NCBI GenBank assembly: GCA_903851445.1
Contig: CAINOH010000009.1
Span: 23,908-87,907, forward strand
DNA length: 64,000 bases
Source: an uncultured Candidatus Micrarchaeota archaeon
GTDB taxonomy: Archaea; Micrarchaeota; Micrarchaeia; Norongarragalinales; CAINOH01
Reading direction: 5' to 3'
Numbering within the stretch: position 1 is the stretch's first letter; each line of letters opens with the position of its first letter. Shown in pieces: positions 8,198-24,337 of the stretch. A program made the position numbers and the translations under genes. Below the pieces are notes generated by a model that saw nothing but the letters and a program-made list of their open reading frames with translations, searched no databases and had not been told where the DNA came from.

Positions 8198-8877
8198 TAG
8201 CCCGTTTGACAGGCGGGCTTTTATTTGGCGCGTCATTAATAGTGCCATGCGGCGTTGAAGGCAAAAGCCGCGCAAAACGCTTTGGGCAAGAGGGAAGAGG
8301 GATTTTGGCTGAATCTGTGACTGAGGACTCCTCCGAAAAGGCCATCGAGACAGTGGTGGACCGGCTCTACGACCTTGTCAAGGCAAGGAAGGCAATATCG
8401 GTCAGGGAAGTGTCCAAGGCGCTCTCACTCCCAGAACCCCAGACTGAGAAGCTTGCCAGGCTGCTTGAATCGTCAAAGCTCGTGCAGGTAAACTACAGCC
8501 TCTCCGACATAATCATCACAACAGTCGATGAAGCCAAGGCTGCCCCGGCAGCTTTCGCCGCAAGCAATTCCGACTCGGCCGAACGCGAAATACTGACCGC
8601 CTGCGAAGACGTTGCAAGGGCAAAAACCCTCCTTGAATTTTCCAAGCGCCAGACCGAACAGGTTTCAAGGAAGCTTGCACAGGCCGCATCACAGCAGGCG
8701 GCAAGCATCAAGGCAAAGGACGTGAGCCCGGCCTTGAGAAAGCGTCTTGAAAGCCTCGAGTCAGACGCCGCCGAGGCCAAAGGGTATGCAAACGCCGCAC
8801 TTGTGGCGGCAACGGTACTCGAGGAGGCCAGCCAGAAGCTTTCGCAGGCCGCAACACGCAAGGGTGCAAGGCAATGA
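8167..8877 (+). CDS. Hypothetical protein with a putative winged-helix segment and long coiled coil; translationally coupled to the pilus ATPase
   Basis: IETVVDRLYDLVKARKAISVREVSKALSLPEPQTEKLARLLESSKLV is wHTH-like, followed by an A/K/Q-rich coiled coil. The stop overlaps the ATPase start (ATGA). The true start is uncertain; a TTG near 8305 or GTG near 8317 is possible. Confidence 0.4.
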   Translation: MRCGKNSRKLIARLTGGLLFGASLIVPCGVEGKSRAKRFGQEGRGILAESVTEDSSEKAIETVVDRLYDLVKARKAISVREVSKALSLPEPQTEKLARLLESSKLVQVNYSLSDIIITTVDEAKAAPAAFAASNSDSAEREILTACEDVARAKTLLEFSKRQTEQVSRKLAQAASQQAASIKAKDVSPALRKRLESLESDAAEAKGYANAALVAATVLEEASQKLSQAATRKGARQ

Positions 8878-10370
8878 AAGTCATAGACTCCTACAACGTC
8901 GAAAGCGAGGGCATAACCGCCCAGGTCCAGATTGTGGACGACGAGACCTTCACCAACATGTACCTGCTCCATCGCACCAAGGTGCGAAAGTCAACCGCGG
9001 CCGTGATGGACTTCCTCAAGCAGCGCATCATCGACGCAGTCAACATCAGCGCGTCAGAAATAGCGAACTTCAGCGCGTGGGAGACCCTACGCGTGAACGT
9101 CAAGAAGAAGGCCCACGAGCTGGTGCGGACAGAGCTCGGCGGCCTGAACGCCAAGGAGGAGGACCTGCTTGTCGGAAAGCTCCTGCAGGAAATGCTCGGG
9201 ATAAGCGAACTTGAGTTCTTCCTGTGCGACGAACAGCTTGAGGAGGTCGTGGTGATTTCCTCAAAGGACCCCGTGTGGGTGTACCACCGGAAATACGGCT
9301 GGCTCCGGACCAACGTCGACATCCAAACCGAGGACCAAATCCGCAACTACGCCGCGATAATGGGAAGACGGGTTGGCAAGCAAATCACAAACCTCGACCC
9401 GCTCATGGACGCCTACCTGCTCTCGGGCCACCGCGTGAACGCGACCCTCGCGCCGGTCTCTGCAAAGGGCAACAGCATCACGATACGCAAGTTCCGCAAG
9501 GACCCGTTCACCGTGATAGACTTCATCAGCCCCAGCCTCAACACCACTTCTGCGGAGGCCCTTGCATTCATCTGGCTTGCGGTCCAGTACGAGATGAACC
9601 TCCTTGTGGGCGGGGGGACGGCAAGCGGAAAGACCTCCTTCCTCAACGCAATCCTCGCATTTACGCCGCCCAACCAGCGCATCATCAGCATCGAGGACAC
9701 GCGCGAGCTCATGCTCCCAAGCTACCTGCACTGGACGCCGATGGTCACGCGGCTGCCAAACCCCGAAGGCAAGGGCGGCGTGAGCATGCTTGACCTGGCA
9801 GTTAACTCGTTGCGCATGCGGCCCGACCGCATCGTGCTCGGCGAGGTGCGCAGGCAAAGCGAAGCCGAGGTGCTGTTCGAGGCAATGCACACCGGCCACG
9901 CGGTATACTCCACGGTGCATGCCGATGACGCCGCCCAGATGAAGAGCAGGCTCATAAGCCCGCCGATAAACCTGCCCGAACAGTTCCTTTCCGCAATGCA
10001 CCTTGCGGTTGTGCAGTACCGCCAGCGCAGGACCGGAATCCGCAGGACAACCGAGATTGCCGAGATAAACCCGGGCGAGAGGGGGACGAGCTTCAACGTG
10101 GTGTTCCAGTGGAACGCCCAGGACGACGCGCTTGAGAAGGTCGACGAGCACATCCGGGTGGACAACGAAATCAAGGCCCGCACCGGGATGAAGCAGAAGG
10201 AGATTACTGCAGACCTTGAGCAGAAGAGGGCAATCCTGCTTGCGATGTCGGCCGCGGGAATCAGCCACGTAGACGACGTGGGCGTGATTTTCGCAAAATA
10301 CTACAAGTCGCCAAAGCTGGTTGCCGAAAGCGCAGAGAAGGGCGCAAAGGAGATGCGAAAGCTCCTGTGA
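8874..10370 (+). CDS. Type IV pilus/archaellum assembly ATPase (FlaI/TadA/VirB11 superfamily)
   Basis: Walker A GGGTASGKTSFLNAIL, then SIEDTRELML, VLGEVRRQSEAEVLFEAMHTGH (Asp/His boxes); N-terminal FlaI-like domain. Confidence 0.9.
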   Translation: MKVIDSYNVESEGITAQVQIVDDETFTNMYLLHRTKVRKSTAAVMDFLKQRIIDAVNISASEIANFSAWETLRVNVKKKAHELVRTELGGLNAKEEDLLVGKLLQEMLGISELEFFLCDEQLEEVVVISSKDPVWVYHRKYGWLRTNVDIQTEDQIRNYAAIMGRRVGKQITNLDPLMDAYLLSGHRVNATLAPVSAKGNSITIRKFRKDPFTVIDFISPSLNTTSAEALAFIWLAVQYEMNLLVGGGTASGKTSFLNAILAFTPPNQRIISIEDTRELMLPSYLHWTPMVTRLPNPEGKGGVSMLDLAVNSLRMRPDRIVLGEVRRQSEAEVLFEAMHTGHAVYSTVHADDAAQMKSRLISPPINLPEQFLSAMHLAVVQYRQRRTGIRRTTEIAEINPGERGTSFNVVFQWNAQDDALEKVDEHIRVDNEIKARTGMKQKEITADLEQKRAILLAMSAAGISHVDDVGVIFAKYYKSPKLVAESAEKGAKEMRKLL

Positions 10371-11269
10371 CGGTGCAAACGACAGTGGAAAGCAAGGTCC
10401 CGATGCTGCCGTTCTCGCTCGTGCCACCCCAGTTTACCTTCGAGCTTGCAAGCAAGACCCGGCCCCTTGGCACCGCAGTGCAGGCCTGGGTGCCCATCCT
10501 TGGCGACGACCTCCTGGGCGCAGGCTATGCCGACATCGACGCCGACACCTACGCAACCGCGTGCGTTCTCAACGCATTCACGAACTTCTTTGCCGTGTTC
10601 ATACTCATCGACTTGCTAGGCGCGCTCACGCTCACGCCGATGCTCCTGGTTGCGGGGCTTGCGTCCGCAGGCGTGGGCATTGCAACATTGGTCTCGTGCC
10701 TCGTCTGGCCCCAGATCATCGCAACGCAAAGGCGGCGCGCCATTGACGCGAACATGATTGCCGCAACCCGCCAGCTGCTCATACAGATACGCTCGGGCGT
10801 CCCGCTCTTCAACGCGCTCCTTTCGGTAAGCTCCGGCCACAGCAAGGTCTCGGAGGAGTTCTACAAGATTGCGGCCAAGCTCAACGCGGGCGTTGACGAG
10901 ACCGACGCGCTTGCCGAGGCGTCAGCAACCTCGCCGTCCATACAATTTCGCAAGGTGGTGTGGCAGCTTTCCAACGCGCTCAAGGTCGGCACCGACGTGG
11001 GCCTGGCGCTCGAGGCCACTCTTGGCGAGCTCGAACTCGAGCAGACCGAGCAAATCAAGAAGTATTCGCAGGAGCTCTCGCCCCTCACGATGATTTACAT
11101 GATAAGCGCAATCATCGTGCCGAGCCTGGGCGTGACAATGCTCATAGTCGTGGGCTCCCTGATGTCGTTCCCGATTCCCAAGGCAACGCTTGTCGTGGTG
11201 TTCATCGTGATGATAGGGTTCCAGGCGTTCTTCCTCAACTTCGTCGCCTCGCGCAGGCCGGTGGTGTGA
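10367..11269 (+). CDS. Pilus assembly membrane platform protein, TadB/FlaJ-like (T2SS-F domain), first half of a split platform
   Basis: Polytopic. T2SSF-like block IAATRQLLIQIRSGVPLFNALLSVSS...TDVGLALEATLGELE. Start overlaps the ATPase stop. Confidence 0.75.
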   Translation: MTVQTTVESKVPMLPFSLVPPQFTFELASKTRPLGTAVQAWVPILGDDLLGAGYADIDADTYATACVLNAFTNFFAVFILIDLLGALTLTPMLLVAGLASAGVGIATLVSCLVWPQIIATQRRRAIDANMIAATRQLLIQIRSGVPLFNALLSVSSGHSKVSEEFYKIAAKLNAGVDETDALAEASATSPSIQFRKVVWQLSNALKVGTDVGLALEATLGELELEQTEQIKKYSQELSPLTMIYMISAIIVPSLGVTMLIVVGSLMSFPIPKATLVVVFIVMIGFQAFFLNFVASRRPVV

Positions 11270-11272
11270 AAG

Positions 11273-12298
11273 ATGAAGACCAGTCGCATAATCACAAGGG
11301 CGTCCTACGTCCTGCCGCGAAAGTGGGTCGACTCGATTGGAAGGCTGCTTGTCAAGGGCGGGTTCAATACCACCAAGCACAGGTACCTGATAGGCCTTGC
11401 CATGCTTGGCGCTCTCTGTTTGGGCGCCCTGTCCAGCTTCATCTGCCTCGCTGTGATGCGCGACTATAAGTTCGCGGCGTTCTCCGGGCTCCTTATAATC
11501 ATGGCGGAAGTCGGCGGCGCGTACTTCATCCTCAAGTCAACTGCATTCCAGCGCAGCAAGAGGATAGAGAGCGTGCTCCCTGACGCTTTGCGCATCATCT
11601 CGGCAAACATGCGGGCCGGGATGACAATAGAGAACGCGCTGTGGTCCGCCGCAAGGCCCGAATTCGGCCCATTTAAGGACGAGCTGAGCAGGGTGGCTGC
11701 TGACACGTTCGGTGGGATGCCGATAGAGGATGCGCTCCTTTGCATGCCAGAGCGCGTTGACTCGCGGCTCGTGGAGCGCTCAATCGACCTGATGGTAGGC
11801 GGCCTGCGCCTGGGCGGACGCATGACCGACCTGCTTGACCACATCGCAGCTGACATCTCTTCGCGCCAGAGCCTGCAGCGTCAAATCGAGACTTCGACAA
11901 CGACCTACGCCATATTCATCGTGTTCTCGGCGCTCGTAGCCGCACCGATGCTCTTTGCAGTCTCCACGTTCTACTCGGAAATCAACGAGAAGACGCTCTT
12001 GGGTTTCACCGAGGGGATGCAGGTGAATTCGGCCGCCCGCGCACGCATAGCCTCGTCCGGCATCCCTATGCTTTTGCCATCAGCGCAGGCTGACCAGATA
12101 GGGTTTGCTGACATCCGCCTCTTCTCGCTCGGCGTAATCATCATCACCGCGTTCTTCGCATCCATAATCATCGCCCAGATAAAGGAAGGCGAGGCACACA
12201 GGGGCCTTTCCTACGTCCCCATTTTCGTCGCAGTTGCAATGACCGTGTTCCTGCTTGGCCTCTACGGGCTTGAGACCGCGTTTGCGGGAATGATATAA
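11273..12298 (+). CDS. Pilus assembly membrane platform protein, TadC/FlaJ-like (T2SS-F domain), second half
   Basis: LRIISANMRAGMTIENALWSAARPEFGPFKDELSRVAADTFGGMPIEDAL, then TM helices. 4 nt after the previous gene. Confidence 0.75.
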   Translation: MKTSRIITRASYVLPRKWVDSIGRLLVKGGFNTTKHRYLIGLAMLGALCLGALSSFICLAVMRDYKFAAFSGLLIIMAEVGGAYFILKSTAFQRSKRIESVLPDALRIISANMRAGMTIENALWSAARPEFGPFKDELSRVAADTFGGMPIEDALLCMPERVDSRLVERSIDLMVGGLRLGGRMTDLLDHIAADISSRQSLQRQIETSTTTYAIFIVFSALVAAPMLFAVSTFYSEINEKTLLGFTEGMQVNSAARARIASSGIPMLLPSAQADQIGFADIRLFSLGVIIITAFFASIIIAQIKEGEAHRGLSYVPIFVAVAMTVFLLGLYGLETAFAGMI

Positions 12299-12378: not shown

Positions 12379-12843
12379 ATGTCAAAAGGGCAAACCGCAC
12401 TCGAATACCTTGTCACTTACGGCTGGGCAATACTCGGCATCATCATCATAGTCGGCGTGCTCATCTCGTTCGGGGTGTTCAACCCGACCAAGTGGGCGAC
12501 CGTGCGCCAGCAGGGCGGATTCTCATCAATCGCAGTGCTTGACCACAGCATCACAGCAGGAACCGGCGGCGTCATGAAGATAGCTTTCCAGAACACGCGC
12601 GGAAACTCGATTACCATAACGCAGGTTGTGTCGATGGCCGGCGGGTGCGGCTGGACCGGCTCGCAGCTTCTGACTGTTGACAACCCCGTCTCAATCACCA
12701 CCAGCGCGTGCAACCAGACCACAGTCACCGGCGCAACCGTAGGCTCGGCGTACGACTTTTCCGACGTGGCCGTGACATACACCGACTCAGTATCGAGCAT
12801 GTCGCACACCGAACGCGGGTTCATCAAGGGCCAGTTCCAGTAG
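12379..12843 (+). CDS. Class III signal peptide pilin (candidate pilin of the Tad-like operon)
   Basis: MSKGQTALEYLVTYGWAILGIIIIVGVLISFGVF..., beta-rich C-terminus with Cys pairs. Confidence 0.7.
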   Translation: MSKGQTALEYLVTYGWAILGIIIIVGVLISFGVFNPTKWATVRQQGGFSSIAVLDHSITAGTGGVMKIAFQNTRGNSITITQVVSMAGGCGWTGSQLLTVDNPVSITTSACNQTTVTGATVGSAYDFSDVAVTYTDSVSSMSHTERGFIKGQFQ

Positions 12844-12875
12844 GGAAAATAGCCAAAGCGCACGTTCTGTTCCCA

Positions 12876-13802
12876 ATGGCCAAAGAACGCTTTCCAAAAG
12901 AATACCTGGACAAGTACTCCTCAATCCTCGGAAGCGAGTTTGGCAGGTTCATCTCCTCATTTGAAAAAAAGGAAAAGAAGGCAATCTGGTGCAACTCGCT
13001 CAGGACCACACCGCAGGAACTGTGCTCCGAACTGACGGGCCGCGGCTTTTGCCTTGCGCCGCTCGAATTCTCGGAAAACGCCTTCCTTATTGAGTCGGGC
13101 CCCGAGCGGCCTGGCCGCGACGACGCGTTCATGCAGGGAAGGTTCAACCTGCAGGAGAAGGCCGCGATGCTTCCTGCAATCGCGCTTGAACCAAAACCTG
13201 GAGAGCGCATACTCGACGGCTTTGCAGCGCCGGGAAACAAGACGCTCCAGCTCTGCTGCCTGTGCAACAATGAAGCGGAAATCACCTGCCTCGAGAGGGA
13301 CCCTGTACGCATACGTACGCTGCAATTCAACGCGCGAAAGTTCGGAATGCAGATTGATGCGAAGAAACTTGACTTTTTGAAATTCAAGGACCGCGAGGGT
13401 TTTGACAGGATCCTGCTTGACGCGCCCTGCAGCTCCGAAGGCCTGGCAAGAAAACGGTTGGATGCCCTTGCGGAATGGAGCCAGAGGAAAGTTGAGAACA
13501 TGTCCAAGAGGCAGAAGAAAGCCGTTGTCCGCGGGTTCGACCTGCTCAAGAGCGGCGGCACGCTGGTATATTCCACCTGCTCGCTTTCTCCAGAGGAGGA
13601 CGAGGAAGTCATCGACCACCTCCTTGCAAGCAGGGATGGCGTGACGGTGGAAAGGGTAAAGCTTGCAGGCGTCAACGCATCCAAGGGAATCGTGCAATAC
13701 CAGGGAAAGGAATTCGACTCCCGCGTCGGGAACTGCGTACGGCTCTACCCGCACGAGTGGGACTGCCAGCCATTCTTCATCGCAAAGATTCAGAAAGGAT
13801 AA
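12876..13802 (+). CDS. NOL1/NOP2/Sun-family RNA cytosine-C5 methyltransferase
   Basis: SAM motif ILDGFAAPGNKT, catalytic DAPCSSEG and TCSLSPEE motifs. The ATG at 12876 is chosen because the longer ORF from 12708 overlaps the upstream pilin. Confidence 0.85.
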   Translation: MAKERFPKEYLDKYSSILGSEFGRFISSFEKKEKKAIWCNSLRTTPQELCSELTGRGFCLAPLEFSENAFLIESGPERPGRDDAFMQGRFNLQEKAAMLPAIALEPKPGERILDGFAAPGNKTLQLCCLCNNEAEITCLERDPVRIRTLQFNARKFGMQIDAKKLDFLKFKDREGFDRILLDAPCSSEGLARKRLDALAEWSQRKVENMSKRQKKAVVRGFDLLKSGGTLVYSTCSLSPEEDEEVIDHLLASRDGVTVERVKLAGVNASKGIVQYQGKEFDSRVGNCVRLYPHEWDCQPFFIAKIQKG

Positions 13803-13907
13803 TGGCCAGCCGCGGAGCAGGACAACTGCCGGCTGATGCGAAGCGCATATAATGATTGTTGCCCAAAGTCGTCTTACAAACTTTCAACAAGAAAAGGTCG
13901 GTTGCCT

Positions 13908-14639
13908 ATGACAATAGCAGTGCCCCAGACGTTCGATGCTGTCCTTTCGGAAAAGCGCGAGGAAGTCCCGGGCGTTGTCACGATGCGCCTTGCGCCCGTT
14001 GACGGCCGCAAGCTCTCCTTCTTGCCAGGCCAGTTTGCAATGCTGTGCTTTCCCGACGAGCCCGACCCGCAGCGGAAGTGCCGCGCATACTCAATCTCAT
14101 CATCCCCGCAGGTGACTGACTACATCGAAGTCACTATAAAGATAGTCAAGGAGTGGACGAGCCGCATGACATCCACTGCCGTTGGCACCAAGCTGCAGGT
14201 CAAGATGCCATTCGGCAGGTTCGTCCTCGACCCGACTTGCCGCGACCACGTGTTCATCGCGGGTGGTGTTGGGATCACGCCTTTCGCGGCAATGTCAAGC
14301 TTCCTTGCGGCAACCAAGCCCGAAGCCGTACGGGCAACATTGTTCTACAGCGCAAAGACGCCGGCAACGCTCATATTCCGCGAGCGGTTTGAGAAGACCG
14401 CACGAGAATGGCCGGAGCTCAACCTTGCGTTCACTATTACAGACAAGGAATATTCGGGCGCGGACTGGCCAGGCCACCGCGGCAGGCTTGACGCCGAATT
14501 CATCAAGGCAACGCTCGGGAATATTGCCGGAAAGAAGTTCTACCTATGCGGCTCCGGCCAGATGATGGCAGGCATAGAGGAGATACTCGAATCGATGGGC
14601 GTTGCAAAGGAGAACATCCACACCGAGAAATTCGGCTAG
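13908..14639 (+). CDS. FAD/NAD(P)-binding oxidoreductase (ferredoxin-NADP reductase-like, PyrK/hydrogenase-gamma family)
   Basis: FAD-binding barrel (RAYSISS, LCFPDEPDP), then NAD-binding GGVGITPF...LCGSGQMM. No Cys cluster. Confidence 0.65.
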   Translation: MTIAVPQTFDAVLSEKREEVPGVVTMRLAPVDGRKLSFLPGQFAMLCFPDEPDPQRKCRAYSISSSPQVTDYIEVTIKIVKEWTSRMTSTAVGTKLQVKMPFGRFVLDPTCRDHVFIAGGVGITPFAAMSSFLAATKPEAVRATLFYSAKTPATLIFRERFEKTAREWPELNLAFTITDKEYSGADWPGHRGRLDAEFIKATLGNIAGKKFYLCGSGQMMAGIEEILESMGVAKENIHTEKFG

Positions 14640-14641
14640 AA

Positions 14642-14929
14642 TCAGCGCCTAGCCTTCATCTTCTCGCCGACAAAGTTGATGAGGTCGCGGAGCTTCTTTT
14701 CCATGGTCGGGTAGTCAACGAGCTCATCCAGGCCGGTAAGCATCGACGCTACCTCGGGCTTGATTTTTAGGTACTCGCGCTCAAGCTGCTCCAGCCGCGA
14801 CGCGAGCTCGCCTATCTCATTCTGCGTACGCCTTCGGTAATCCAGGACGAAGTATATGGCAACCACGAGCACGACCATGGATGCTGCAAAGAGCCCGAAA
14901 GCGAGTGCCGACATACTGACAAGGGCCAT
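14642..14929 (-). CDS. Small membrane-anchored coiled-coil protein
   Basis: N-terminal TM helix, then a charged heptad-like segment (ELASRLEQLEREYLKIK). Confidence 0.4.
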   Translation of the reverse strand: MALVSMSALAFGLFAASMVVLVVAIYFVLDYRRRTQNEIGELASRLEQLEREYLKIKPEVASMLTGLDELVDYPTMEKKLRDLINFVGEKMKARR

Positions 14930-15240
14930 TACACTACGCCCCCCTCTATGACTGCTGACGTCAGGTCCCTAGCCTGCTTTGTGATGCTCTGCATCGCGTT
15001 GCGCGTAATCTTCCTCTCAAGCCCGGCTTTCGCATCCTGGATGCTTTGCGCCATCGCTGCAGACTCGGCGTGCGCCGCGTCAATCCTGGCCGAAAGCTCC
15101 GCCACCTTCGCAACCGCACCGTCGTGCGCCCTCTTTGCAAGGACGAACGCCACAAAAGCGCCCGCTAATGACACTAGGAAACAGAACCCCGCAACGTAGA
15201 CGTCTTCGACCATAGGAACATCAGGCAAAATCAACTGCAC
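14929..15240 (-). CDS. Small membrane-anchored coiled-coil protein
   Basis: TM helix then an Ala/Lys-rich helix. Overlaps the upstream pilin stop by 10 nt and the downstream gene by 1 nt. Confidence 0.4.
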   Translation of the reverse strand: MQLILPDVPMVEDVYVAGFCFLVSLAGAFVAFVLAKRAHDGAVAKVAELSARIDAAHAESAAMAQSIQDAKAGLERKITRNAMQSITKQARDLTSAVIEGGVV

Positions 15241-15710
15241 GTCCCGACGAGCGGCCTTGCGCCAGTCTGCCTCATGGAATAGTTCATGAAGTTGTACAGG
15301 ATGTTCACCTGCACCTCGAAGGCCTTGCCGGACGCGGTATAGACGCAGGGGTTTCCGCTTGTAAAGCTTGACACGTAAATGGCGTTCTCCTCGCCAGCTG
15401 AGAATACGTGGTAGCCCGTGCTCAGGTTATTGACGTTGCCCACGCTGTCTACGAACTGCATCTCGGTGACGTTGAGGCTGTCGGAGCCGCGGTTGGCAAG
15501 AACAAGCAGCGCGGTGCCGTTCATGACCTTGAATGCCGTGATTGAGAAGGGCGTGGCGGTCTTCCAGTAGGACTCCGACTCCCTTTCCCTGCCGGGCCCG
15601 CCCACTTGCGGGAACCAGCCCAAAAGCGCTATGACGACCATCGCCACTAGAAGCACCGCGCCCAAAATGACAAGATATTCCGTTGCGCCCTGCCCCTTTG
15701 AGCGGACCAT
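15231..15710 (-). CDS. Major-pilin-like protein (class III signal peptide), paralog 3
   Basis: MVRSKGQGATEYLVILGAVLLVAMVVIALLGWFP...; many NxS/T sequons; C-terminal ...LVGTCS. Confidence 0.75.
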   Translation of the reverse strand: MVRSKGQGATEYLVILGAVLLVAMVVIALLGWFPQVGGPGRERESESYWKTATPFSITAFKVMNGTALLVLANRGSDSLNVTEMQFVDSVGNVNNLSTGYHVFSAGEENAIYVSSFTSGNPCVYTASGKAFEVQVNILYNFMNYSMRQTGARPLVGTCS

Positions 15711-15870: not shown

Positions 15871-16380
15871 TTACGAGCACCTTCCAACCAGGGACTGCGC
15901 GCCCTGCTGTCGAATCCCGGTAATCGACCCCTGGGTGTAGCCGAACGCCACAATCTTGAGCTCGAACGGGTTGCCCGTCTTCGAAGTGACTCCGTTGCAC
16001 GGGTTGGTGGCGTTGACGCCTACTAAGAAAGTGAAAGGCACAGTAACCACTGCTTCCTCGCCTCCGTTGAAAGACTGGGCCGGACTCGCTACGACGTATG
16101 TAAACGTACTCGTTCCATTAGGAATTTCAATCGAAGTCAGGGTCAGTGCGTCAGAAAGCCTGTTTGAAAGCGAGAAGGTCATTGTCGTGTTGTCGACCTT
16201 GAACGAGTTTATCGCAAACGGGCTTGCACCGGACCAGTACGCCTTGGACTGCTGCTCCTTTGTAGAGCCGCCGAGCGCGGGGAACCAGCCAAGAAGGCTT
16301 ACTACTACAAGCGCGACAAGCAACACTGCGCCCAATATGACAAGATATTCCGTTGCGCCCTGACCTCTTGAGTAGACCAT
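15871..16380 (-). CDS. Major-pilin-like protein, paralog 2
   Basis: MVYSRGQGATEYLVILGAVLLVALVVVSLLGWFPALGGSTKEQQSKAYWSGASPFAINSFK...IRQQGAQSLVGRCS. Confidence 0.8.
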   Translation of the reverse strand: MVYSRGQGATEYLVILGAVLLVALVVVSLLGWFPALGGSTKEQQSKAYWSGASPFAINSFKVDNTTMTFSLSNRLSDALTLTSIEIPNGTSTFTYVVASPAQSFNGGEEAVVTVPFTFLVGVNATNPCNGVTSKTGNPFELKIVAFGYTQGSITGIRQQGAQSLVGRCS

Positions 16381-16542
16381 ATCATCACCTATACCTATAT
16401 TGCAAATGAAATTGACTTATGTAAAGGAACGGAAAGGGAGAATAAAAAAGTAGGTTTTGGGCCTTGTTCTTTTGGGCGATGGGAAAACTAAAGGAATGGT
16501 GAGAAAAAGAAAAACTAAAAAAAGAAAAAAGGGAATTGGTGC

Positions 16543-17040
16543 TTACGAGCACCTTCCAACCAGGGACTGCGCGCCCTGCTGGCGAATCCCGGTAATCGCC
16601 CCAGAGGTGTAGGTGAACGCCACAATCTTGATCTCAAACGGATTGCCCGTCTTGGACGCGCCCGATGAGTAGCACGGGTTGGTGGAATTTGCGACGGTCG
16701 TAGTAACCACCGCTTCCTCGCCCCCGTTGAAGGCCTTGGCCGGCCACGCTACCGTATATGTAAACGTGCCCGTTCCATTAGGTATGTCAATCCCAGTCAG
16801 GGTCAGCGAGTCAGAAAGCCTGTTTGAAAGCGAGAAGGTCATTGTGGTGCCGTCAAGTTTGAACGAGTTTATCGCAAACGGGCTGGCGCCGGACCAGTAC
16901 GCCTTGGACTGCTGCTCCTTTGTAGAGCCGCCAAGCGCGGGAAACCAGCCAAGAAGGCTTACCACGACAAGAGCGACAAGCAAGACTGCGCCCAATATGA
17001 CAAGATACTCGGTCGCACCCTGCCCTCTCCTAAACTGCAT
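16543..17040 (-). CDS. Major-pilin-like protein, paralog 1
   Basis: MQFRRGQGATEYLVILGAVLLVALVVVSLLGWFPALGGSTKEQQSKAYWSGASPFAINSFK..., ~85% identical to paralog 2. Confidence 0.8.
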   Translation of the reverse strand: MQFRRGQGATEYLVILGAVLLVALVVVSLLGWFPALGGSTKEQQSKAYWSGASPFAINSFKLDGTTMTFSLSNRLSDSLTLTGIDIPNGTGTFTYTVAWPAKAFNGGEEAVVTTTVANSTNPCYSSGASKTGNPFEIKIVAFTYTSGAITGIRQQGAQSLVGRCS

Positions 17041-17233
17041 TGTAAACCACCTTAAATGAAAATGGACTAAGAAATCAAGATGCCGAGTTTATTTAAATAG
17101 GTTGCTTAACTCCGGCGTTTTCGCGCAAACCCAACGCCCAACGCCATACTTTCTCCTCTAATAAAAGCGATGGCTTTTTAAAGAGCCGAACAGAAATGAC
17201 ATAAAATAATTGATACAAAAAGGTGAACTGCTG

Positions 17234-17620
17234 ATGTCTGAAACAAAGAGGGGCCAGGGCGCGTTCGAGTACATTCTGATGCTGTCGGGAGTGCTCCTGA
17301 TAGTGATACTCATAATATTCATACTCCAAGGGACGATAACGGGAACAAACAACACTATGGGAACACAGCAAAACACGCTCAACAGCACAGTAAACGTGGA
17401 CATAGTACCGCAATACACGCAATGTTTGATAGTCACAAGTGCAACTGGCAGCATCACCGGACCATCATACCCCTGCTGCGTCCTTAACGGAGCCGCAAAC
17501 CTTGCCGCATGCACAGCAGCAGGATGCGCCGGAGTACCTGGGATTGTTCAATGCACCCAAACCACACTTGCCAGCTGTCCGACAAGCCAGTTCAACAGGA
17601 AAATAGGAAGGTGCGCGTAA
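17234..17620 (+). CDS. Cysteine-rich mini-pilin (family member 1)
   Basis: MSETKRGQGAFEYILMLSGVLLIVILIIFILQGTITGTNNTM... then PCC...C...C...FNRKIGRCA. Confidence 0.7.
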   Translation: MSETKRGQGAFEYILMLSGVLLIVILIIFILQGTITGTNNTMGTQQNTLNSTVNVDIVPQYTQCLIVTSATGSITGPSYPCCVLNGAANLAACTAAGCAGVPGIVQCTQTTLASCPTSQFNRKIGRCA

Positions 17621-17662
17621 GCGCACACTTTCCCCATCTTTCTTAAGAGGTGAACAAGGAAT

Positions 17663-18001
17663 ATGAGACGCGGACAAGGCGCATTTGAATACATACTCAT
17701 GCTTTCGGGGGTACTGCTGATTGTGATAATCATCATATTCATACTCCAGGGGACAATCGGCGGGGCGAACAACACGATGACAGCACAGCAAAACACCTAC
17801 AACACGTCAGTGTCCGTGGATATCGTGCCCCAGTACACGGCAAACCTAATAGTGATGAGCCAGACTGGCGGACTTGGCGGCCCATACCCCTGCTGTGAAA
17901 ACTTCGCTACGCCAGGATGCACCGGAGTAATAATCAACTGCACCGGCACGCTCAACTGCTATTCAAGCAGGTTCGACAGGAAAGTAGGAAGGTGCGTATA
18001 A
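17663..18001 (+). CDS. Cysteine-rich mini-pilin (family member 2)
   Basis: MRRGQGAFEYILMLSGVLLIVIIIIFILQGTIGGANNTM...PCCENFATPGCTGVIINCTGTLNCYSSRFDRKVGRCV. Confidence 0.75.
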   Translation: MRRGQGAFEYILMLSGVLLIVIIIIFILQGTIGGANNTMTAQQNTYNTSVSVDIVPQYTANLIVMSQTGGLGGPYPCCENFATPGCTGVIINCTGTLNCYSSRFDRKVGRCV

Positions 18002-18042
18002 GCGCATTGCCTCTCTTTTTTTATTTTTAAATAATTGAAATA

Positions 18043-18420
18043 GTGATTGGGACTATGATGAGGCGCGGCCAGGGGGCATTTGAGTACATCCTGATGCTGT
18101 CCGGGGTGATTCTCGTGGTCATAATCATCCTGCTCATACTGCAGGGCAGCATCTCATCCACAAACAACACGCTTGCGGACAACGAGAACAAGTTTGGAAC
18201 CTATACGACGGTCGACTTTGACAACCACCGGACGCCCAACCTGTACGTGGCTGAGCAGACGGGTACTACCACAATAACAAACACGCCCTGCTGCTCGAAC
18301 GTGAACTCGTCTACAGTAAAATGCTACGGCCCGAACAGCGTATCGAGCACCACCATATGCAGCGCAAACATCACGTGCCCGTCGAAATACTTCAACAACG
18401 CAACTGGCACCTGCGGCTGA
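18043..18420 (+). CDS. Cysteine-rich mini-pilin (family member 3)
   Basis: ...MMRRGQGAFEYILMLSGVILVVIIILLILQGSISSTNNTL...PCCSNVNSSTVKCYG...CSANITCPSKYFNNATGTCG. Confidence 0.7.
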   Translation: MIGTMMRRGQGAFEYILMLSGVILVVIIILLILQGSISSTNNTLADNENKFGTYTTVDFDNHRTPNLYVAEQTGTTTITNTPCCSNVNSSTVKCYGPNSVSSTTICSANITCPSKYFNNATGTCG

Positions 18421-18482
18421 GAAAGAAATAATATAAAAAAAACATTAGCTATAGCAGGAACTTTACTACGAGGAGAATAAAA

Positions 18483-18830
18483 TTGCGGCGCGGGCAGAAC
18501 TATTACGGGATAATGCTCGTGTGCGTGCTCGCGCTCACCCTCGGCACCATCTTCCTGCTTTCACAGGCGCCGCCGGCAATCAACGCCTCGCTTTCAAGCT
18601 CGCAGGACAGGCTTGACAACGGCTCGATTTCGGGGGTTGCACCCCAAGGCGACGCGGACCTTCTTGTGCTAAGGCGCACGGGCAACGTCGCAGTCGACTC
18701 CGCCATTCCCTGCTGCGCGAACGCCAAAAGCGGATGTGGTGGAAACGCGGCCAACTGCACCTATTCAAATGGCAACAGCCTGTCGTGCTTTTCCCGGCTT
18801 TTCGACACTGACGCCGGCTCTTGCGCATAG
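18483..18830 (+). CDS. Cysteine-rich mini-pilin (divergent family member 4; TTG start)
   Basis: MRRGQNYYGIMLVCVLALTLGTIFLL...PCCANAKSGCGGNAANCTYSNGNSLSCFSRLFDTDAGSCA. An aggagaataaaa motif lies upstream. Confidence 0.55.
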   Translation: MRRGQNYYGIMLVCVLALTLGTIFLLSQAPPAINASLSSSQDRLDNGSISGVAPQGDADLLVLRRTGNVAVDSAIPCCANAKSGCGGNAANCTYSNGNSLSCFSRLFDTDAGSCA

Positions 18831-18892: not shown

Positions 18893-19078
18893 ATGAAGCG
18901 GAAAGGCCTTGGGCAGCGCGGGCAGACGTCGACGGAGTACATGCTGCTCATAGCCCTCGGCCTGACAATAGTGATTGTCTCGATCGCAATAGCAACCCAG
19001 ATCAAGGGGATGACCGACTCGCTTCTGGTGCGCGCGCAGGTTGAGCGCGAGTCCACAATCTCTATGATTGTGCGCTGA
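18893..19078 (+). CDS. Minor pilin-like protein (61 aa)
   Basis: MKRKGLGQRGQTSTEYMLLIALGLTIVIVSIAIATQIKG... Confidence 0.55.
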   Translation: MKRKGLGQRGQTSTEYMLLIALGLTIVIVSIAIATQIKGMTDSLLVRAQVERESTISMIVR

Positions 19079-19139: not shown

Positions 19140-20183
19140 TTGACAACACTTATGACGGACTTCCTGCTTTTCGCCTTTGCAGCTGCCTATTGCGCAACCG
19201 CCTGCTACATTGACATCAGGCATAGGACAATACCGGACTGGCTCACTTACGGCGGCATCGCAGCCGGGCTTGCCCTTGGCGGCCTCAACTGCCTTGCCCT
19301 GGGAGGTGCCTTTGCTTTGCAATACACGCTGATGCTTGCAACCGCGCTTGCCCTGGGCTACCTCCTGTTCGCCCTTGGCGTGTGGGCCGGCGGCGACGCA
19401 AAATTATTCTGGGCGTTTGCCGCGCTGCTTGGCGCTGCAAGCCGTGCAGACGTGCTCCTTCCGGTTGTGCTGTTTGCGGCCTCGGCGCTGCTTTTCCTTG
19501 CCTGGACGTTCGTTTCGAACGCGGGAACCATACTGAAGAAAAGAAGGGAGTGCACGCGAATAGCTGTTGATTCGGCAGCAAAGGCAGTTGGCGCGGCGGC
19601 AGTTGCCTCGCTTTTTGCCAGCGGCCTTGGCGCGGATTACATCCTTGCGGCAATCGTTGCAGTTGCATTTCTTCTTGTGCAGCTGCCGAAATACGCCTGG
19701 CTGGCGATATTGCTTGTTGCGCTTGCCTTGAACGCCGACGCAACCACAGTCGCGTTCCCGCTCTCCTTTTTGCTTGCATCCGCAATAGGGACGGTGGCGG
19801 GAATAGGCTCGAAAGTCATTGCGCCCAGCCTCACCTACAAAGTGCGCAAGGCCGACCTTGAGGAAGGGATGCTGCCAGCGTACACGGTGATTGAAAATAA
19901 CGGCAAGGCGGTGCTGTTTCGGCCAATGTTCGACTTGGGCGGAATAATCAAGGCAGCACGAAAGGAAAGCGATGTGAAAAAAATCCTCCAAAAAGCGGGT
20001 GCGATTCCGCCTGCCGGCTCAAAAATAGTCGCGGATTCCGCAGACGCGGCCGGGCTTGAAGCTTCGCAATTGCAGAGGTTAAAAAAGCTGGGAAATGTTA
20101 GATGGTTGCAAGTGCGGAGGACAACGGCATTCGCGCCGGTCCTTTGCGTTTGCTTTCTTGCGGCGCTTGCCGGGTTGTTCTGA
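19140..20183 (+). CDS. Prepilin/preflagellin peptidase (A24 aspartic peptidase, PibD/FlaK-like) with a C-terminal extension
   Basis: Two catalytic Asp motifs at canonical spacing: CYIDIRHRTIPD (D~24) and GVWAGGDAKLFWAF (GGDxK, D~86). Eight or more TM helices. TTG start. Confidence 0.75.
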   Translation: MTTLMTDFLLFAFAAAYCATACYIDIRHRTIPDWLTYGGIAAGLALGGLNCLALGGAFALQYTLMLATALALGYLLFALGVWAGGDAKLFWAFAALLGAASRADVLLPVVLFAASALLFLAWTFVSNAGTILKKRRECTRIAVDSAAKAVGAAAVASLFASGLGADYILAAIVAVAFLLVQLPKYAWLAILLVALALNADATTVAFPLSFLLASAIGTVAGIGSKVIAPSLTYKVRKADLEEGMLPAYTVIENNGKAVLFRPMFDLGGIIKAARKESDVKKILQKAGAIPPAGSKIVADSADAAGLEASQLQRLKKLGNVRWLQVRRTTAFAPVLCVCFLAALAGLF

Positions 20184-20196
20184 AGGGTAGACGAAG

Positions 20197-20625
20197 ATGC
20201 GCGGACAGGTCGGGCTGGAATTCTTCCTAATACTGGGCTTCTGCCTTGCAATGCTCACAATACTGATTTCGGACTCGGAGCGGGAGATAACCGAGAACGA
20301 AAAGCTTGACACTGCCGTGCTTTCGCTTTCAGCGCTGAACTCGGTGTCCAACGCAATCAACATCGTTGCCTTGCAGGGCAACGGCGCACAGTTGGCAGTT
20401 AGCGCGTTCGTGCCGTCAAAAAGCAAGTGCTACCTGCCGGTTGCTTCAGAGCAGCGGCTTGCTTGCGACATCGGCGACGCGTACGGCCGGCGCGTGTACG
20501 GGATGAGGCTGATGGCGATGCCGGACACCATCAACGATGCGTGCTACACCACGTACGGCTGGATGGACGTTACCGTGAAGAAGGCGGCCGGAAAGATTGA
20601 AATCTACTGCTCGGGGCAGGCGTGA
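20197..20625 (+). CDS. Class III signal peptide pilin-like protein
   Basis: MRGQVGLEFFLILGFCLAMLTILI...; Cys pairs in the C-terminal part. Confidence 0.6.
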   Translation: MRGQVGLEFFLILGFCLAMLTILISDSEREITENEKLDTAVLSLSALNSVSNAINIVALQGNGAQLAVSAFVPSKSKCYLPVASEQRLACDIGDAYGRRVYGMRLMAMPDTINDACYTTYGWMDVTVKKAAGKIEIYCSGQA

Positions 20626-20632
20626 GCGGCTT

Positions 20633-21055
20633 ATGCTTTCTGGAAGGGACGGAAAACGCGCGCAGACCTCGGTAGAGTACATGATGGCGCTTGCGATGAC
20701 CCTCGTGATCGTTGCGGCCATCATGGTCGGCGGGTTCCGCGAGCTCGAGCTTGACCTTGCGCTTGGCGCTGCAAGGATGGGCGGCACCGACTTTACCGCC
20801 GGGAACCCGGGCTACACGCTTGGAAGGGTTGACTTTACCCTTAACGAGAGTGAAAACACCATTAATGTCACGCCGCACTTCTACCTTCGCGGCGCAAGCA
20901 CGATCCCGGACGAGGACAGGATTACGGCCGGGTCCCTATGCTTTTCCAAGATACGAAGCGTGTTCCAGCCAGGCAACTTAAGCCCGAGCGCGGACTATTG
21001 TTTTGACGCGACTTACCGGCGCTACTGCGTCACTCCGGTAATGGCGCCGGCATAG
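20633..21055 (+). CDS. Class III signal peptide pilin-like protein
   Basis: MLSGRDGKRAQTSVEYMMALAMTLVIVAAIMVGG... Confidence 0.55.
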   Translation: MLSGRDGKRAQTSVEYMMALAMTLVIVAAIMVGGFRELELDLALGAARMGGTDFTAGNPGYTLGRVDFTLNESENTINVTPHFYLRGASTIPDEDRITAGSLCFSKIRSVFQPGNLSPSADYCFDATYRRYCVTPVMAPA

Positions 21056-21063
21056 GTGAGACG

Positions 21064-21600
21064 ATGAGACTGCTTCCAACTGACGACGTTTCAAGGTTCC
21101 AGCTTTTCTCGCTGCTTTTCCTCGCGGCCATACTCGCGTCCACGTTCATAGGCACGTACGCGTTTGCGGCCACGCTCCTGCTGTTTGGAATCCTTTGCCT
21201 CTTCCTAGCGCAGCCGCTTGCGCAGGCGCAGAGGAAACAGGCGTACGCGCTGTTCTGTATATTCGGCCTCTTCGGCCTTGGCGCGCTCTTGGGAAGCCTG
21301 TTAGTAGCTTCACCCGCCCAGGCGCTCGGCTTTTTCCCGCTGTTGATTGTTGGTTTTCTTGCCCTGTACGCAGTAGTCAAGCTCTACGTGGTAAGCGGTG
21401 ATGCGGAGTGCAAAGTCATCGGCTACTCCGAAGGCTACGCGATAGTCGATGTCGCACCGTCGGTGCTGGCGGCAATCCCGCCGGGAATCCACGCGGTAAA
21501 AAGCAGGCCTGTTGCGAAGGGAAGGAAGGCGCGGCTTGTCTTTGAGCGCAAGCTTTTCGGCTCCGCGTCAAAGCCAACCGGCCTTGAGACGCACTCCTGA
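21064..21600 (+). CDS. Polytopic membrane protein of unknown function inside the pilin island
   Basis: Four to five TM helices then a ~60 aa soluble tail. No class III motif. Confidence 0.4.
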   Translation: MRLLPTDDVSRFQLFSLLFLAAILASTFIGTYAFAATLLLFGILCLFLAQPLAQAQRKQAYALFCIFGLFGLGALLGSLLVASPAQALGFFPLLIVGFLALYAVVKLYVVSGDAECKVIGYSEGYAIVDVAPSVLAAIPPGIHAVKSRPVAKGRKARLVFERKLFGSASKPTGLETHS

Positions 21601-21694
21601 TTTTTGCCTAATGTTAAACGTGGGAAAAGTTGGGCCGCCACCAGCGTTGCCCTTTCGGCAGTTTTTTATCGTGCAGCATAATACTTCCTTTGCG

Positions 21695-22168
21695 ATGAGG
21701 GGACAGATGGCGTTGGAGTTCTTTTTTGCAATGGCGCTAGTCTACCTTTCGGTCTCCTGGCTGGTCAACTACCTTAATGCGGGCTACGACTCCGGCAGGT
21801 TCCTCGCATTGCGAGAGGAAAAACTTGTTGCTGCTGAAATCGCCGGCCTTGCAAACAGCGCCTGCGTGTCAAACTTGAGCGCGACAATCAACGCGCCGTG
21901 CATGACGTACATTGGAAAACCAACCGGCTACTGGCTTTACACCGACGGCAACAGGCTCATAGTCAATACCTCACTCGCGCCAGAGGCTGCGAGGGCAGTG
22001 GCGGTCTGTGATGTTTACGCCAACCTGACGGAATACAACGCGACTTTTGGCGTGTTCGAGCAGCAGCAAATGGCCTGTGATGCCAACACTTTCGAAGGCA
22101 CAGAGATATGCGTCCGGCCGGACGGCACGGGAAAGGTCGGCCTCTCAATGGGGCGGTGCACGTCATGA
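21695..22168 (+). CDS. Class III signal peptide pilin-like protein
   Basis: MRGQMALEFFFAMALVYLSVSWLV...; several Cys. The internal ATG is chosen over the long ORF from 21512. Confidence 0.55.
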   Translation: MRGQMALEFFFAMALVYLSVSWLVNYLNAGYDSGRFLALREEKLVAAEIAGLANSACVSNLSATINAPCMTYIGKPTGYWLYTDGNRLIVNTSLAPEAARAVAVCDVYANLTEYNATFGVFEQQQMACDANTFEGTEICVRPDGTGKVGLSMGRCTS

Positions 22169-22569
22169 GCCACTACCGCCGCAAGGCCAGGCGTGCGCAG
22201 TTCTTCTCGGCAGACTTTGTAGTTGCAACGGTAACGCTGTGCTTTGCGCTCGGGTTCCTCCTGCACTCCGGCCAGCTTTCGCTTGACAGTTTCTCAAAAT
22301 ACGGCCAGCACGACAACAACATAGCCGAGACAGTTGCCGCAAGCCTTACAACGCCCGGCGCGCTGCCGGTTGCTCCGGCAAAAATGCCGCATACTTGCTG
22401 GGAATACGACAACGGGACGAATTCGACACCGGACTGCGCGTCGGTAATTGACGGCACCGGCGGGTGCGCTGGCCGCAAGATGGACACATATTCCGCAAGC
22501 AGGCTTGTCGCGTGCGGAAACTCGGCGTGCCTTTTGACTGTAAGAAGCTGCGATGTGGTTGTGCAATGA
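22165..22569 (+). CDS. Pilin-like / signal-anchored secreted protein
   Basis: MSHYRRKARRAQFFSADFVVATVTLCFALGFLL...; Cys-rich; start overlaps the previous stop. Confidence 0.5.
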   Translation: MSHYRRKARRAQFFSADFVVATVTLCFALGFLLHSGQLSLDSFSKYGQHDNNIAETVAASLTTPGALPVAPAKMPHTCWEYDNGTNSTPDCASVIDGTGGCAGRKMDTYSASRLVACGNSACLLTVRSCDVVVQ

Positions 22570-22994
22570 GACGGGCGTTCATCTTCACTGCTGACGCGAT
22601 TTTTGCGCTGATGATGCTGGGCGCGGTGGCGCTCATGTTTACAGTGTACGCGACGCAGCCGGAGTATTCTGCCAAGACGACCCTCTTGCAGGCCATTGCC
22701 TATGACTATGCAACGCTTTCACTGCCGCCGGTGAACCTTGACGAGAGCACGTTCAAGGCAAAGACGGGCTTTGACGTTTACGTCTCGGAGGGCGCGGTGC
22801 CAAACGCAAGGCAAATCGTGGTGCGGGCGACAAAGTACGCGTACAACAACTCGTGCAACAGCAAGGACTGCAGCAAAAACTGCAGCATTACCAAGGCCGA
22901 TGCGACCGGGTCGGGCGGGTACGGCTGCCTTACAAACCAGGCGCTTGACCGGTTCGGCATAATCAGCACAAAAGCGTGGGTGGCTACCCCATGA
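22566..22994 (+). CDS. Pilin-like / signal-anchored secreted protein
   Basis: MRRAFIFTADAIFALMMLGAVALMFTVY...; ATGA overlap with the neighbour. Confidence 0.5.
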   Translation: MRRAFIFTADAIFALMMLGAVALMFTVYATQPEYSAKTTLLQAIAYDYATLSLPPVNLDESTFKAKTGFDVYVSEGAVPNARQIVVRATKYAYNNSCNSKDCSKNCSITKADATGSGGYGCLTNQALDRFGIISTKAWVATP

Positions 22995-23614
22995 AGGGAA
23001 TGTTCTCTTTCGCAGTGGCAATGTTCGCCTCACTGGTTCTCTTCTACTTCGTGGCCAGTGTGGTTTCCATCTCGGAATACCAGGCCATCGGCCAGAAGCG
23101 GCTGCAGGTGCAGGTGCTCTCGCAGGCCTACGGCGACGCGACTGGAGTTTATGACGATGCAGTAATGGATGCGATACTCGATTCGGCTTACTCGTCAGAT
23201 GATGCCAACGCCTGCAATGGCGCTACGGGCGCGCTTTCAAGCAAGCTTGCCACTAAGGTGCAGTCGTATGTTGACCACACCACCACCAACCTTTCAGCAG
23301 CGTTCGATGGCACCGCAACCGCCGCCACGTCCTGGCCCGCATCGGGCCTCTACGTTGACATTTCCCCTGGCCAGCAGACGCTGGCCCCGTCGTGCAAGGC
23401 AGCAGCGGACGCGAGCCTCGTCCTGAATCGCGTGAATGCAACCGTGGCTTTCCCGCTCAACGTCACTTCAGCCGACGGGTCAACAGGCGCGGTGTCAAAG
23501 CAGTTCAATCGCTCCTACGAAATACTGACCAACTACTCCGCCGCGAGCAATTCGTTCACAATTCTGGTCCGGCGCAACGGCGTTGACATGCGCTGCGTCA
23601 ACGTCGCCTGCTGA
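22991..23614 (+). CDS. Signal-anchored secreted protein (pilus-associated?)
   Basis: MKGMFSFAVAMFASLVLFYFVASVVSI...; ATGA overlap with the previous gene. Confidence 0.45.
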   Translation: MKGMFSFAVAMFASLVLFYFVASVVSISEYQAIGQKRLQVQVLSQAYGDATGVYDDAVMDAILDSAYSSDDANACNGATGALSSKLATKVQSYVDHTTTNLSAAFDGTATAATSWPASGLYVDISPGQQTLAPSCKAAADASLVLNRVNATVAFPLNVTSADGSTGAVSKQFNRSYEILTNYSAASNSFTILVRRNGVDMRCVNVAC

Positions 23615-23692
23615 ACTCGTTTCCTTCCCTCACCAAAACGGTTAAATCGGCTTGCAGGCACTAAGAGTCAATAGGGGAAAAGGGGGATTGTC

Positions 23693-24337
23693 GTGGACCG
23701 CCGGTCGGTCACTTTCGCAATACTGGTCGTTGTAGTGCTGATAGCCGTTGCCATGCTCACTACACCGCCCCGGAACACCGCATTCACATCAAAGGACGCG
23801 GTTGACGCGAGCTTGAAGGATGCCCAGCAGTTCGCGGCAGTCGGTTATCCTGGCGCGGAGACTTACATCGAAGTGACGTCGGCATCCAACGCATCGGGAA
23901 AGTGGAAGGTCGAGATGCGCCTTTCAATTGCACCGCACTCGCGGTGCCCTGCGATGCAGAAGCTGTACTACGAGATGTTTCCGGTTACTTTGCGCAACGA
24001 GACGGTTGTTGCGGCCAACGACTGCCACGCTAGGCCAATCAGCGTTGCGCCGGACGCGATAGTTGACTCTTATGCTGACTCGGCAGGCGCAAGGCAGGCA
24101 CAATCAATAGGGTATGCCGCTTGCGCTTTCCAAATCCCGCTTTCGGATGTTGCCGCTGCGACAAACTATTGCCCTGCTGTTGACAATGCGTCCATTGCGG
24201 ATTTTGCATCAAGTAATGCGCTCAAGGACGGCTCGTGGGTGGTGCAGTGGTACAGGAAGGCCTCTGACAGCTACCTGGTGGCGCTGGACTCCTCCGGGAG
24301 CCTGCTTGCCGAGGGCAACTACGCACCCAGGACGTAA
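23693..24337 (+). CDS. Signal-anchored secreted protein
   Basis: GTG start; MDRRSVTFAILVVVVLIAVAMLTTP... then a Cys-containing ectodomain. Confidence 0.45.
   Translation: MDRRSVTFAILVVVVLIAVAMLTTPPRNTAFTSKDAVDASLKDAQQFAAVGYPGAETYIEVTSASNASGKWKVEMRLSIAPHSRCPAMQKLYYEMFPVTLRNETVVAANDCHARPISVAPDAIVDSYADSAGARQAQSIGYAACAFQIPLSDVAAATNYCPAVDNASIADFASSNALKDGSWVVQWYRKASDSYLVALDSSGSLLAEGNYAPRT

Follow-up and report, generated by a model that had tools for sequence, protein, structure and literature searches.

Cysteine-rich mini-pilins encoded in tandem within a type IV pilus locus of a Micrarchaeia archaeon

The pil operon of Methanococcus maripaludis contains two PilC paralogues, a dedicated peptidase and minor pilins encoded within the operon itself (PMC6098224). 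Minor pilins form a tip complex in bacterial type 4 filaments, with a subunit that has no glutamate at mature position 5 (Glu5) as its cap, and pilins there can bear grafted adhesive domains (PMC10191384). A disulfide in the D-region staples the C-terminal segment of bacterial type IV pilins (PMC4471445), and type IV pilus components of the Thermoproteales hold multiple conserved cysteines, for which stabilising disulfides were proposed (Makarova, Koonin and Albers 2016; PMC4858521). Here we describe four tandem genes, m1 to m4, for small cysteine-rich pilin-like proteins, or mini-pilins, in a 64,000-nucleotide stretch of DNA from an uncultured Candidatus Micrarchaeota archaeon (GenBank assembly GCA_903851445.1, contig CAINOH010000009.1, positions 23,908 to 87,907 of the forward strand). 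This whole stretch is called the window, and coordinates are those of the window unless a related locus is named.

The four genes form part of a complete locus for an archaeal type IV pilus, which has about 17 pilin-like genes. The locus follows the same logic as the M. maripaludis pil operon, with one ATPase, two PilC paralogues, an A24 peptidase and several small pilins alongside, and its mini-pilins resemble the EppA-type (DUF361/PF04021) pilins of that organism in their class III signal with Gln at +1. In contrast, their head resembled no described pilin in our searches, carries 6-8 cysteines and belongs to a DPANN host. The peptidase of this locus may be of either the EppA or the PibD subfamily. 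With the PilHIJK and GspHIJK tip complexes the mini-pilins share a conserved set of distinct small pilins encoded together, one subunit (m4) that lacks Glu5 like the capping subunit and, in one relative, an adhesive domain grafted on the pilin scaffold. They differ from these complexes in that Pfam, NCBIfam, PDB sequences and Foldseek gave no sequence or fold homology and in that their heads are far smaller; a tip location and low abundance are also only putative here, and other pilin-like genes of the locus could fill that role. As in the bacterial D-region, a penultimate cysteine paired with an upstream one would staple the C-terminus of the mini-pilins. These are archaeal proteins, however, with three to four disulfides in fewer than 50 residues instead of one, and their bonds are inferred from cysteine parity and co-variation. 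The cysteine-rich components of the Thermoproteales are different proteins, from hyperthermophiles of the TACK group and not from a mesophilic DPANN archaeon, and the terms DPANN and Micrarchae do not occur in that survey (PMC4858521).

Four genes in three conserved groups

A first-pass annotation, made from the sequence alone, had claimed four tandem cysteine-rich open reading frames at 17234-18830, and all four were found there on the plus strand: m1 at 17234..17620 (128 amino acids), m2 at 17663..18001 (112 amino acids), m3 at 18055..18420 (121 amino acids) and m4 at 18483..18830 (115 amino acids, with a TTG start). A Shine-Dalgarno-like GGTGA or GGAG stands 5' of each. The annotation had also taken them for class III pilin-like proteins with a small cysteine-rich extracellular head. 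This agrees with the scores against PF04021 (Class_IIIsignal; curated cut-off 23.7 bits), which lie above the cut-off for m1 (30.3 bits, E=3.8e-07), m2 (31.4 bits, E=1.7e-07) and m3 (26.9 bits, E=4.3e-06), three proteins with the common N-terminus RRGQGAFEYILMLSGV. A Pfam scan of full-length m4 gave no match, PF04021 included, and m4 had been described as lacking the class III N-terminus. That description does not hold. The N-terminus of m4, MRRGQNYYGIMLVCVL, has an RRG/Q cleavage site (the slash marks the cut) and a 22-residue hydrophobic stretch in which Glu5 is absent, and this layout of the precursor start (MRRG/QNYYGIMLVCVL) is kept in more than ten orthologues. Judged from these features, m4 is a divergent prepilin and not a protein devoid of a class III N-terminus.

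In a four-way alignment, m2, m3 and m4 are 70%, 42% and 34% identical to m1. Invariant are the N-terminal R-G-Q, a P-C-C, three further cysteines, a phenylalanine and the terminal G-x-C. The head pattern runs from the P-C-C through four more conserved cysteines to a C-terminal F(N/D)xxxGxC. Ectodomain cysteines number eight in m1, which carries an extra pair (QYTQC and LAAC), and six each in m2, which has a short loop between cysteines Cb and Cc, in m3, which has the signature NHRTPNLYVAE ... KYFNNATGxCG, and in m4. The expected 6-8 cysteines of the P-C-C domain were thus found, but not its expected length of about 60 amino acids, since only 37-49 residues separate the P-C-C from the stop; the whole ectodomain measures 84-97 residues.

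In order to find relatives, we built a profile from the ectodomains only. Related loci were fetched and scanned with a hidden Markov model (HMM) of the ectodomain, which matches m1 at E=3.6e-26, and the resulting 57 unique ectodomains were clustered. Three groups emerged: A with 24 sequences, including m1 and m2; B with 8 sequences plus P0040, including m3; and C with 16 sequences, including m4. The same genes occur in nine distinct related genomes, always in the order A, one B, one C, a 61-residue pilin and the peptidase; a lack of conservation in relatives, which would have counted against the first-pass annotation, is not seen. Complete loci have two to three A-type genes (a contig end truncates one locus), and the orthologue of m3 is single-copy in every related locus. 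The order persists down to 45% identity of the C-type protein (L011). Variation is confined to the A group: the number of copies differs, there are eight-cysteine and six-cysteine versions, the loops from Cb to Cc and from Cd to Ce range from about 5 to about 27 residues, and heads may be duplicated. QGAFE5Y is present in all A and B types, and Glu5 in none of the C types, which have no acidic residue in mature positions 1-10 except Asp at +1 in P0058. On these comparisons, the four genes represent three old orthologous groups in fixed order. In one related locus (L006 7183-7791, the same as L016 4736-5344), the N-terminus of the C-type orthologue is frameshifted and the MRRGQNYYG... frame is lost, either through an assembly error or because the gene is a pseudogene.

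Nei-Gojobori estimates on codon alignments, a kind of test that the first-pass annotation had suggested, gave omega values of 0.01-0.1 for the signal and helix, 0.1-0.45 for the stalk and 0.13-0.6 for the cysteine-rich head, all of them rough, with synonymous sites near saturation. The proportion of non-synonymous differences (pN) was far below that of synonymous differences (pS) in every region and pair, and nothing came near omega>1. The four open reading frames are genuine genes and their pattern is not due to chance, because the conserved cysteines recur in the nine related genomes and pN is far below pS. The identical m2 protein is present on 11 contigs. Over the N-terminal 30 codons of m1 and m2, pS reached 0.73; hence purifying selection on the protein, and not recent gene conversion, keeps their helices nearly identical. 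Gene conversion as the cause of the near-identical N-termini was rejected, the synonymous sites there being saturated. The ectodomain HMM gave exactly four full-length matches in the window, and no silent or partial copies.

The family is narrow. Word-indexed searches returned 13 proteins out of 5.8 billion in one case and 16 in another, and family size is best judged by the exhaustive search and the locus scans instead. When HMMER was run exhaustively over 1.84 billion cluster representatives, it gave 18 matches at E<=1e-3, about 15 of them true members; P0042, a 2125-residue type IX secretion system repeat protein, and P0053, a cysteine-rich repeat protein, were judged spurious. All named members are annotated 'hypothetical protein'. 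In Pfam and NCBIfam scans of the full proteins the class III signal was the sole match, with no NCBIfam model for m1-m4. Scans of 20 isolated ectodomains against Pfam-A and NCBIfam gave no recurrent family (best single matches E>=0.002, all different), and a profile search of PDB sequences gave E=0.052 at best, to an unrelated protein. The claim that no described family accounts for the cysteine pattern therefore stands for Pfam and NCBIfam, and on these searches the head family is real, tiny and undescribed. Homologues in DPANN genomes were found as well: only two GTDB species representatives have a relative of m4, both of them metagenome-assembled genomes of Candidatus Micrarchaeia.

Several relatives carry the head in other settings. 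P0038 (L011 4784-5407) is one pilin with two cysteine heads in tandem. In P0047 (L023 8001-9008), a Laminin_G_3 (LamG) domain (E=1.5e-15) is inserted between the third and fourth core cysteines of the head, and the gene adjoins that of a 600-residue class III protein annotated with Laminin_G_3. P0045, P0050 and P0051 have the same head on non-pilin signal anchors. In L026 (1320-3042), a MacB_PCD/FtsX ABC-permease gene ends in an overlap with the start of P0045, a hint that the cysteine-head module is also put to a separate use. Because of the tandem heads, the LamG insertion and the non-pilin anchors, we regard the head as an autonomous, loop-tolerant and presumably extracellular module. Pilins are notoriously diverse; a new head on a standard pilin scaffold is in itself unsurprising. 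What we describe is a narrowly distributed new head-domain form of the archaeal type IV pilin family, and not a new kind of system.

Cysteine parity and predicted fold

The number of cysteines is even in 57/57 unique ectodomains: four in 2, six in 45 and eight in 10. Cysteines are also gained and lost in pairs. The second cysteine of the P-C-C and the next one are absent together in both four-cysteine members (P0049 and P0052). Of the extra pair QYTQC/LAAC, the first cysteine occurs in 11 sequences and is accompanied by the second in 10 of them, and neither occurs alone in the other 46; in the single exception, P0034, the second P-C-C cysteine is lost instead, so that parity is kept. The last cysteine is the penultimate residue in nearly all members. 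The even counts and the pairwise gain and loss argue for two to four structural disulfides per head across the family, indirect backing for the disulfide-knotted head that had been proposed. The same regularity extends beyond the mini-pilins: the window has 18 class III proteins that contain cysteine, and 16 of them have an even count (binomial p=0.0007), and cysteine makes up 6.5-8.2% of the mini-pilin ectodomains compared with 1.5% in eight cytoplasmic proteins. Cysteine-rich ectodomains are thus a general habit of the pilin-like proteins of this host.

Two other class III proteins of the window are rich in cysteine. One, at 49653-50096 on the plus strand, is small (about 147 residues, HGQGAFEYLLMLGG) and has 12 cysteines in about 120 ectodomain residues (9.9%); it matches neither the mini-pilin HMM nor any Pfam family. 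The other, at 50178-51728 on the plus strand, is a 516-residue protein with a class III signal, 32 cysteines (6.5%) and apparent repeated cysteine-containing units, for which the signal peptide is the only Pfam match.

An AlphaFold2 model of m2, from 13 sequences, was unusable (predicted local distance difference test score, pLDDT, 56). That of m4, from 32 sequences, reached pLDDT 75, and about 80 over residues 50-115. It predicts an N-terminal helix at 5-27, a kink, a second helical segment at 32-44 and then four short strands, an arrangement compatible with a minimal pilin 'lollipop'. The structural search that had been suggested for the heads gave no related fold: Foldseek with the m4 model returned 0 PDB chains at E<=10, and BFVD yielded no significant match either, in line with the PDB profile search above. 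N-glycosylation sequons are not enriched above composition (P=0.14-0.56); one sequon, placed directly behind the helix, is kept in 21/32 sequences.

Proposed role of the mini-pilins

We propose, with a probability of roughly 55%, that m1-m4 are peptidase-processed type IV pilin-like subunits of the pilus of this locus, with the A types as variable exposed subunits and the B and C types as invariant minor or tip subunits, and with a probably adhesive function. The precursor would be inserted in the membrane and cut after the Gly of RRG/Q by the A24 prepilin peptidase, whose gene lies 300 bp downstream. The ATPase/PilC-like machine, encoded 5-9 kb upstream, would polymerise the subunits through the hydrophobic N-terminal helix. 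Beyond this helix, a stalk rich in Asn, Thr and Ser would be glycosylated, with its one conserved sequon, and be followed by a short beta hairpin and by the head of 37-49 residues with three disulfides (m2-m4) or four (m1), where the last disulfide-forming cysteine would staple the extreme C-terminus to the head. The A types (m1 and m2), whose copy number and loop length vary and whose relatives carry domain insertions, would be exposed on the surface. The B type (m3) and C type (m4) would be single-copy, invariant and probably low-abundance subunits, the C type without Glu5 being a candidate tip or initiating subunit. TTG starts are frequent among the B and C orthologues, which is an indirect hint of low abundance. 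The likely role is to let this DPANN cell, which depends on a host, attach to a partner cell or a surface. The data show that the genes are real and have class III signals, and they show the setting of the locus, the conservation, the purifying selection and the cysteine parity. From these we infer cleavage, assembly, disulfides, division of labour and adhesion: the division of labour because of the three-class organisation, with variable A and invariant B and C, and adhesion because DPANN archaea live in this way, because one relative bears LamG and because the window encodes other modular class III proteins (PEGA, PKD, DUF285).

Physical contact with host cells is essential to DPANN archaea, and to our knowledge hardly any of the molecules that make this contact have been described. 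The mini-pilin set is compact, conserved and lineage-specific, which makes it a tangible candidate for the apparatus by which one Micrarchaeia lineage makes contact. Its ectodomains, at about 85 residues, are small enough for direct structural and binding studies. If the disulfides are real, this would be a rare instance, in an organism of methanogenic habitats, of extracellular proteins with several disulfides, and how the bonds are made becomes a question. The significance of the set would rise if a tip-complex or host-attachment role, or an unusual route to disulfides in an anaerobic DPANN archaeon, were shown.

Several points weigh against our proposal. Assembly could just as well be primed by six further pilin-like genes that follow the peptidase, instead of m3 and m4. 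The major subunit may be any of the approximately 17 pilin-like genes, and either the A types or larger pilins encoded nearby may form the shaft. Not all archaeal pilins require Glu5, so its absence in m4 is only an analogy to the bacterial capping subunit. Adhesion is read from lifestyle and from the LamG insertion of a relative, not from m1-m4 themselves. The m4 model rests on its 32 sequences, and the saturation of synonymous sites leaves the omega values rough. Finally, disulfide formation would call for an explanation, because at least some relatives come from a methanogenic community (leachate well LW1 of a municipal landfill; Ga0172381; PMC9723747) and the locus contexts read showed no exported thiol oxidase.

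A bolder form of the proposal is that the A, B and C types together build a disulfide-knotted heteromeric tip or initiation complex, capped by the Glu5-less C type, as a convergent miniature of PilHIJK/GspHIJK. Such a complex would grip a possibly methanogenic host, and the A-type loops and grafted domains would set its specificity. We consider this extension speculative and rather unlikely.

A doubtful but serious alternative is that the A types themselves build a separate, very thin pilus as its major subunits, with m3 and m4 as minor subunits and the larger pilins forming another filament or a decoration. The genes of the A type are multi-copy and their helices nearly identical, and the Haloferax paralogues PilA1-6 likewise have one H-domain in common. 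Both m1 and m2 have ATG starts, a strong GGTGA Shine-Dalgarno sequence and TATA-like boxes upstream. Very short major pilins are also known, such as the 66-residue pilin of Geobacter (PMC4471445). Against this stand three divergently transcribed pilins of 159-169 residues on the minus strand (15231-15710, 15871-16380 and 16543-17040), which score about at the PF04021 cut-off and are candidate major pilins themselves. These genes are duplicated as well, their proteins are highly conserved (mean column identity 66% in the alignment, two of the three being 84% identical), and they have long AT-rich upstream regions of their own. Moreover, there is only one ATPase/PilC set in the 64-kb window.

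It is improbable that the conserved cysteines ligate metal ions or perform redox chemistry in place of structural disulfides, although this would be plausible for an anaerobe. The methanogenic landfill leachate as a source of relatives, the thiol oxidase missing from the loci read and the very high cysteine content all speak for it. However, the dominant count of six is no multiple of four, cysteines come and go strictly in pairs, and the alignment contains no CxxC, CxxCH or His/Asp co-ligand pattern. The even parity in unrelated class III proteins of the window is, in addition, a signature of extracellular disulfides. Even less probable, in our view, is that m1-m4 are not filament subunits at all and instead serve as membrane-anchored surface proteins, in which a class III-like anchor carries the cysteine head as a ligand or receptor module. 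The heads on non-pilin anchors (P0045, P0050 and P0051) and the translational coupling of P0045 to its permease gene would fit such a use. In contrast, m1-m3 carry canonical RG/QGAFEY class III signals above the Pfam cut-off, and in every genome m1-m4 have pilins on one side and the prepilin peptidase on the other.

We give least credence to diversifying selection for antigenic or receptor variation, the tandem diversification envisaged by the first-pass annotation: A-type copy number does vary between two and three, loops do differ in length and omega does peak in the head at up to 0.6, but pN is below pS throughout, B and C are single-copy within three groups of fixed order down to 45% identity, the window holds no silent or partial cassettes, and the saturated synonymous sites of the shared N-termini speak against recent gene conversion. 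A relaxed or loop-restricted diversification of the A-type heads is possible.

The surrounding locus

The assembly genes lie upstream of the mini-pilins on the plus strand. They comprise a PilB/ArlI-like ATPase at 8874-10370 (T2SSE E=3.5e-32) and two PilC/TadC-like genes at 10367-11269 and 11273-12298 (T2SSF E=8.5e-16 and 6.4e-15), and a 154-residue pilin from the list of open reading frames follows at 12379-12843 on the same strand. Each of the three minus-strand pilins described above has exactly two cysteines (NPC ... VG[RT]CS), the last being penultimate as in the mini-pilins. The C-terminal G[RT]C common to both was tried as a sign of homology and rejected: between the mini-pilin heads and these neighbouring pilins, hhalign detected no homology (probability 0.2).

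Downstream of m4, also on the plus strand, a 61-residue pilin-like gene without a head (RG/QTSTEYMLLIALG) occupies 18893..19078; PF04021 matches at E=5e-4 on a longer open reading frame. It always lies between the C-type gene and the peptidase, a position kept in L006, L007 and L011. The A24 prepilin peptidase, the presumed processing enzyme, follows at 19140..20183 on the plus strand (PF01478 E=2.6e-11, PF06819 E=8.9e-4) and has an AGGDAKL motif; nine genomes keep the synteny of the mini-pilins with the peptidase and the assembly machine. A run of further pilin-like or membrane-anchored genes, known from their translations and mostly with even cysteine counts, extends over 20197..24337 on the plus strand as part of the same locus, again with conserved synteny. 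ABCE1, CDC48 and other archaeal housekeeping genes flank the pilus locus. The ATPase falls in a 90% identity cluster to which NCBI gives the name 'Candidatus Micrarchaeia archaeon', so the DPANN origin hinted at in the first-pass annotation is right.

In the middle of the pilus locus, 12708-15240 encodes an RsmB/F-like methyltransferase, an FNR-like FAD/NAD oxidoreductase and two small transmembrane/coiled-coil proteins, the latter at 14642-14929 and 14929-15240 on the minus strand. The synteny of these four genes is kept in all relatives, including the distant P0046 locus. The G+C content of the pilin genes at 16001-18000 is 0.50, compared with 0.55-0.59 in the flanks, and a second dip to 0.49-0.50 occurs at 34-38 kb. 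Farther along the window, two large modular pilins each combine a class III signal with a long Pro/Thr-rich linker: one at 46559-48382 on the plus strand carries a PEGA domain (E=2.4e-10), and the other at 57375-58979 on the minus strand carries DUF285 (E=2.6e-68) and a weak PKD match.

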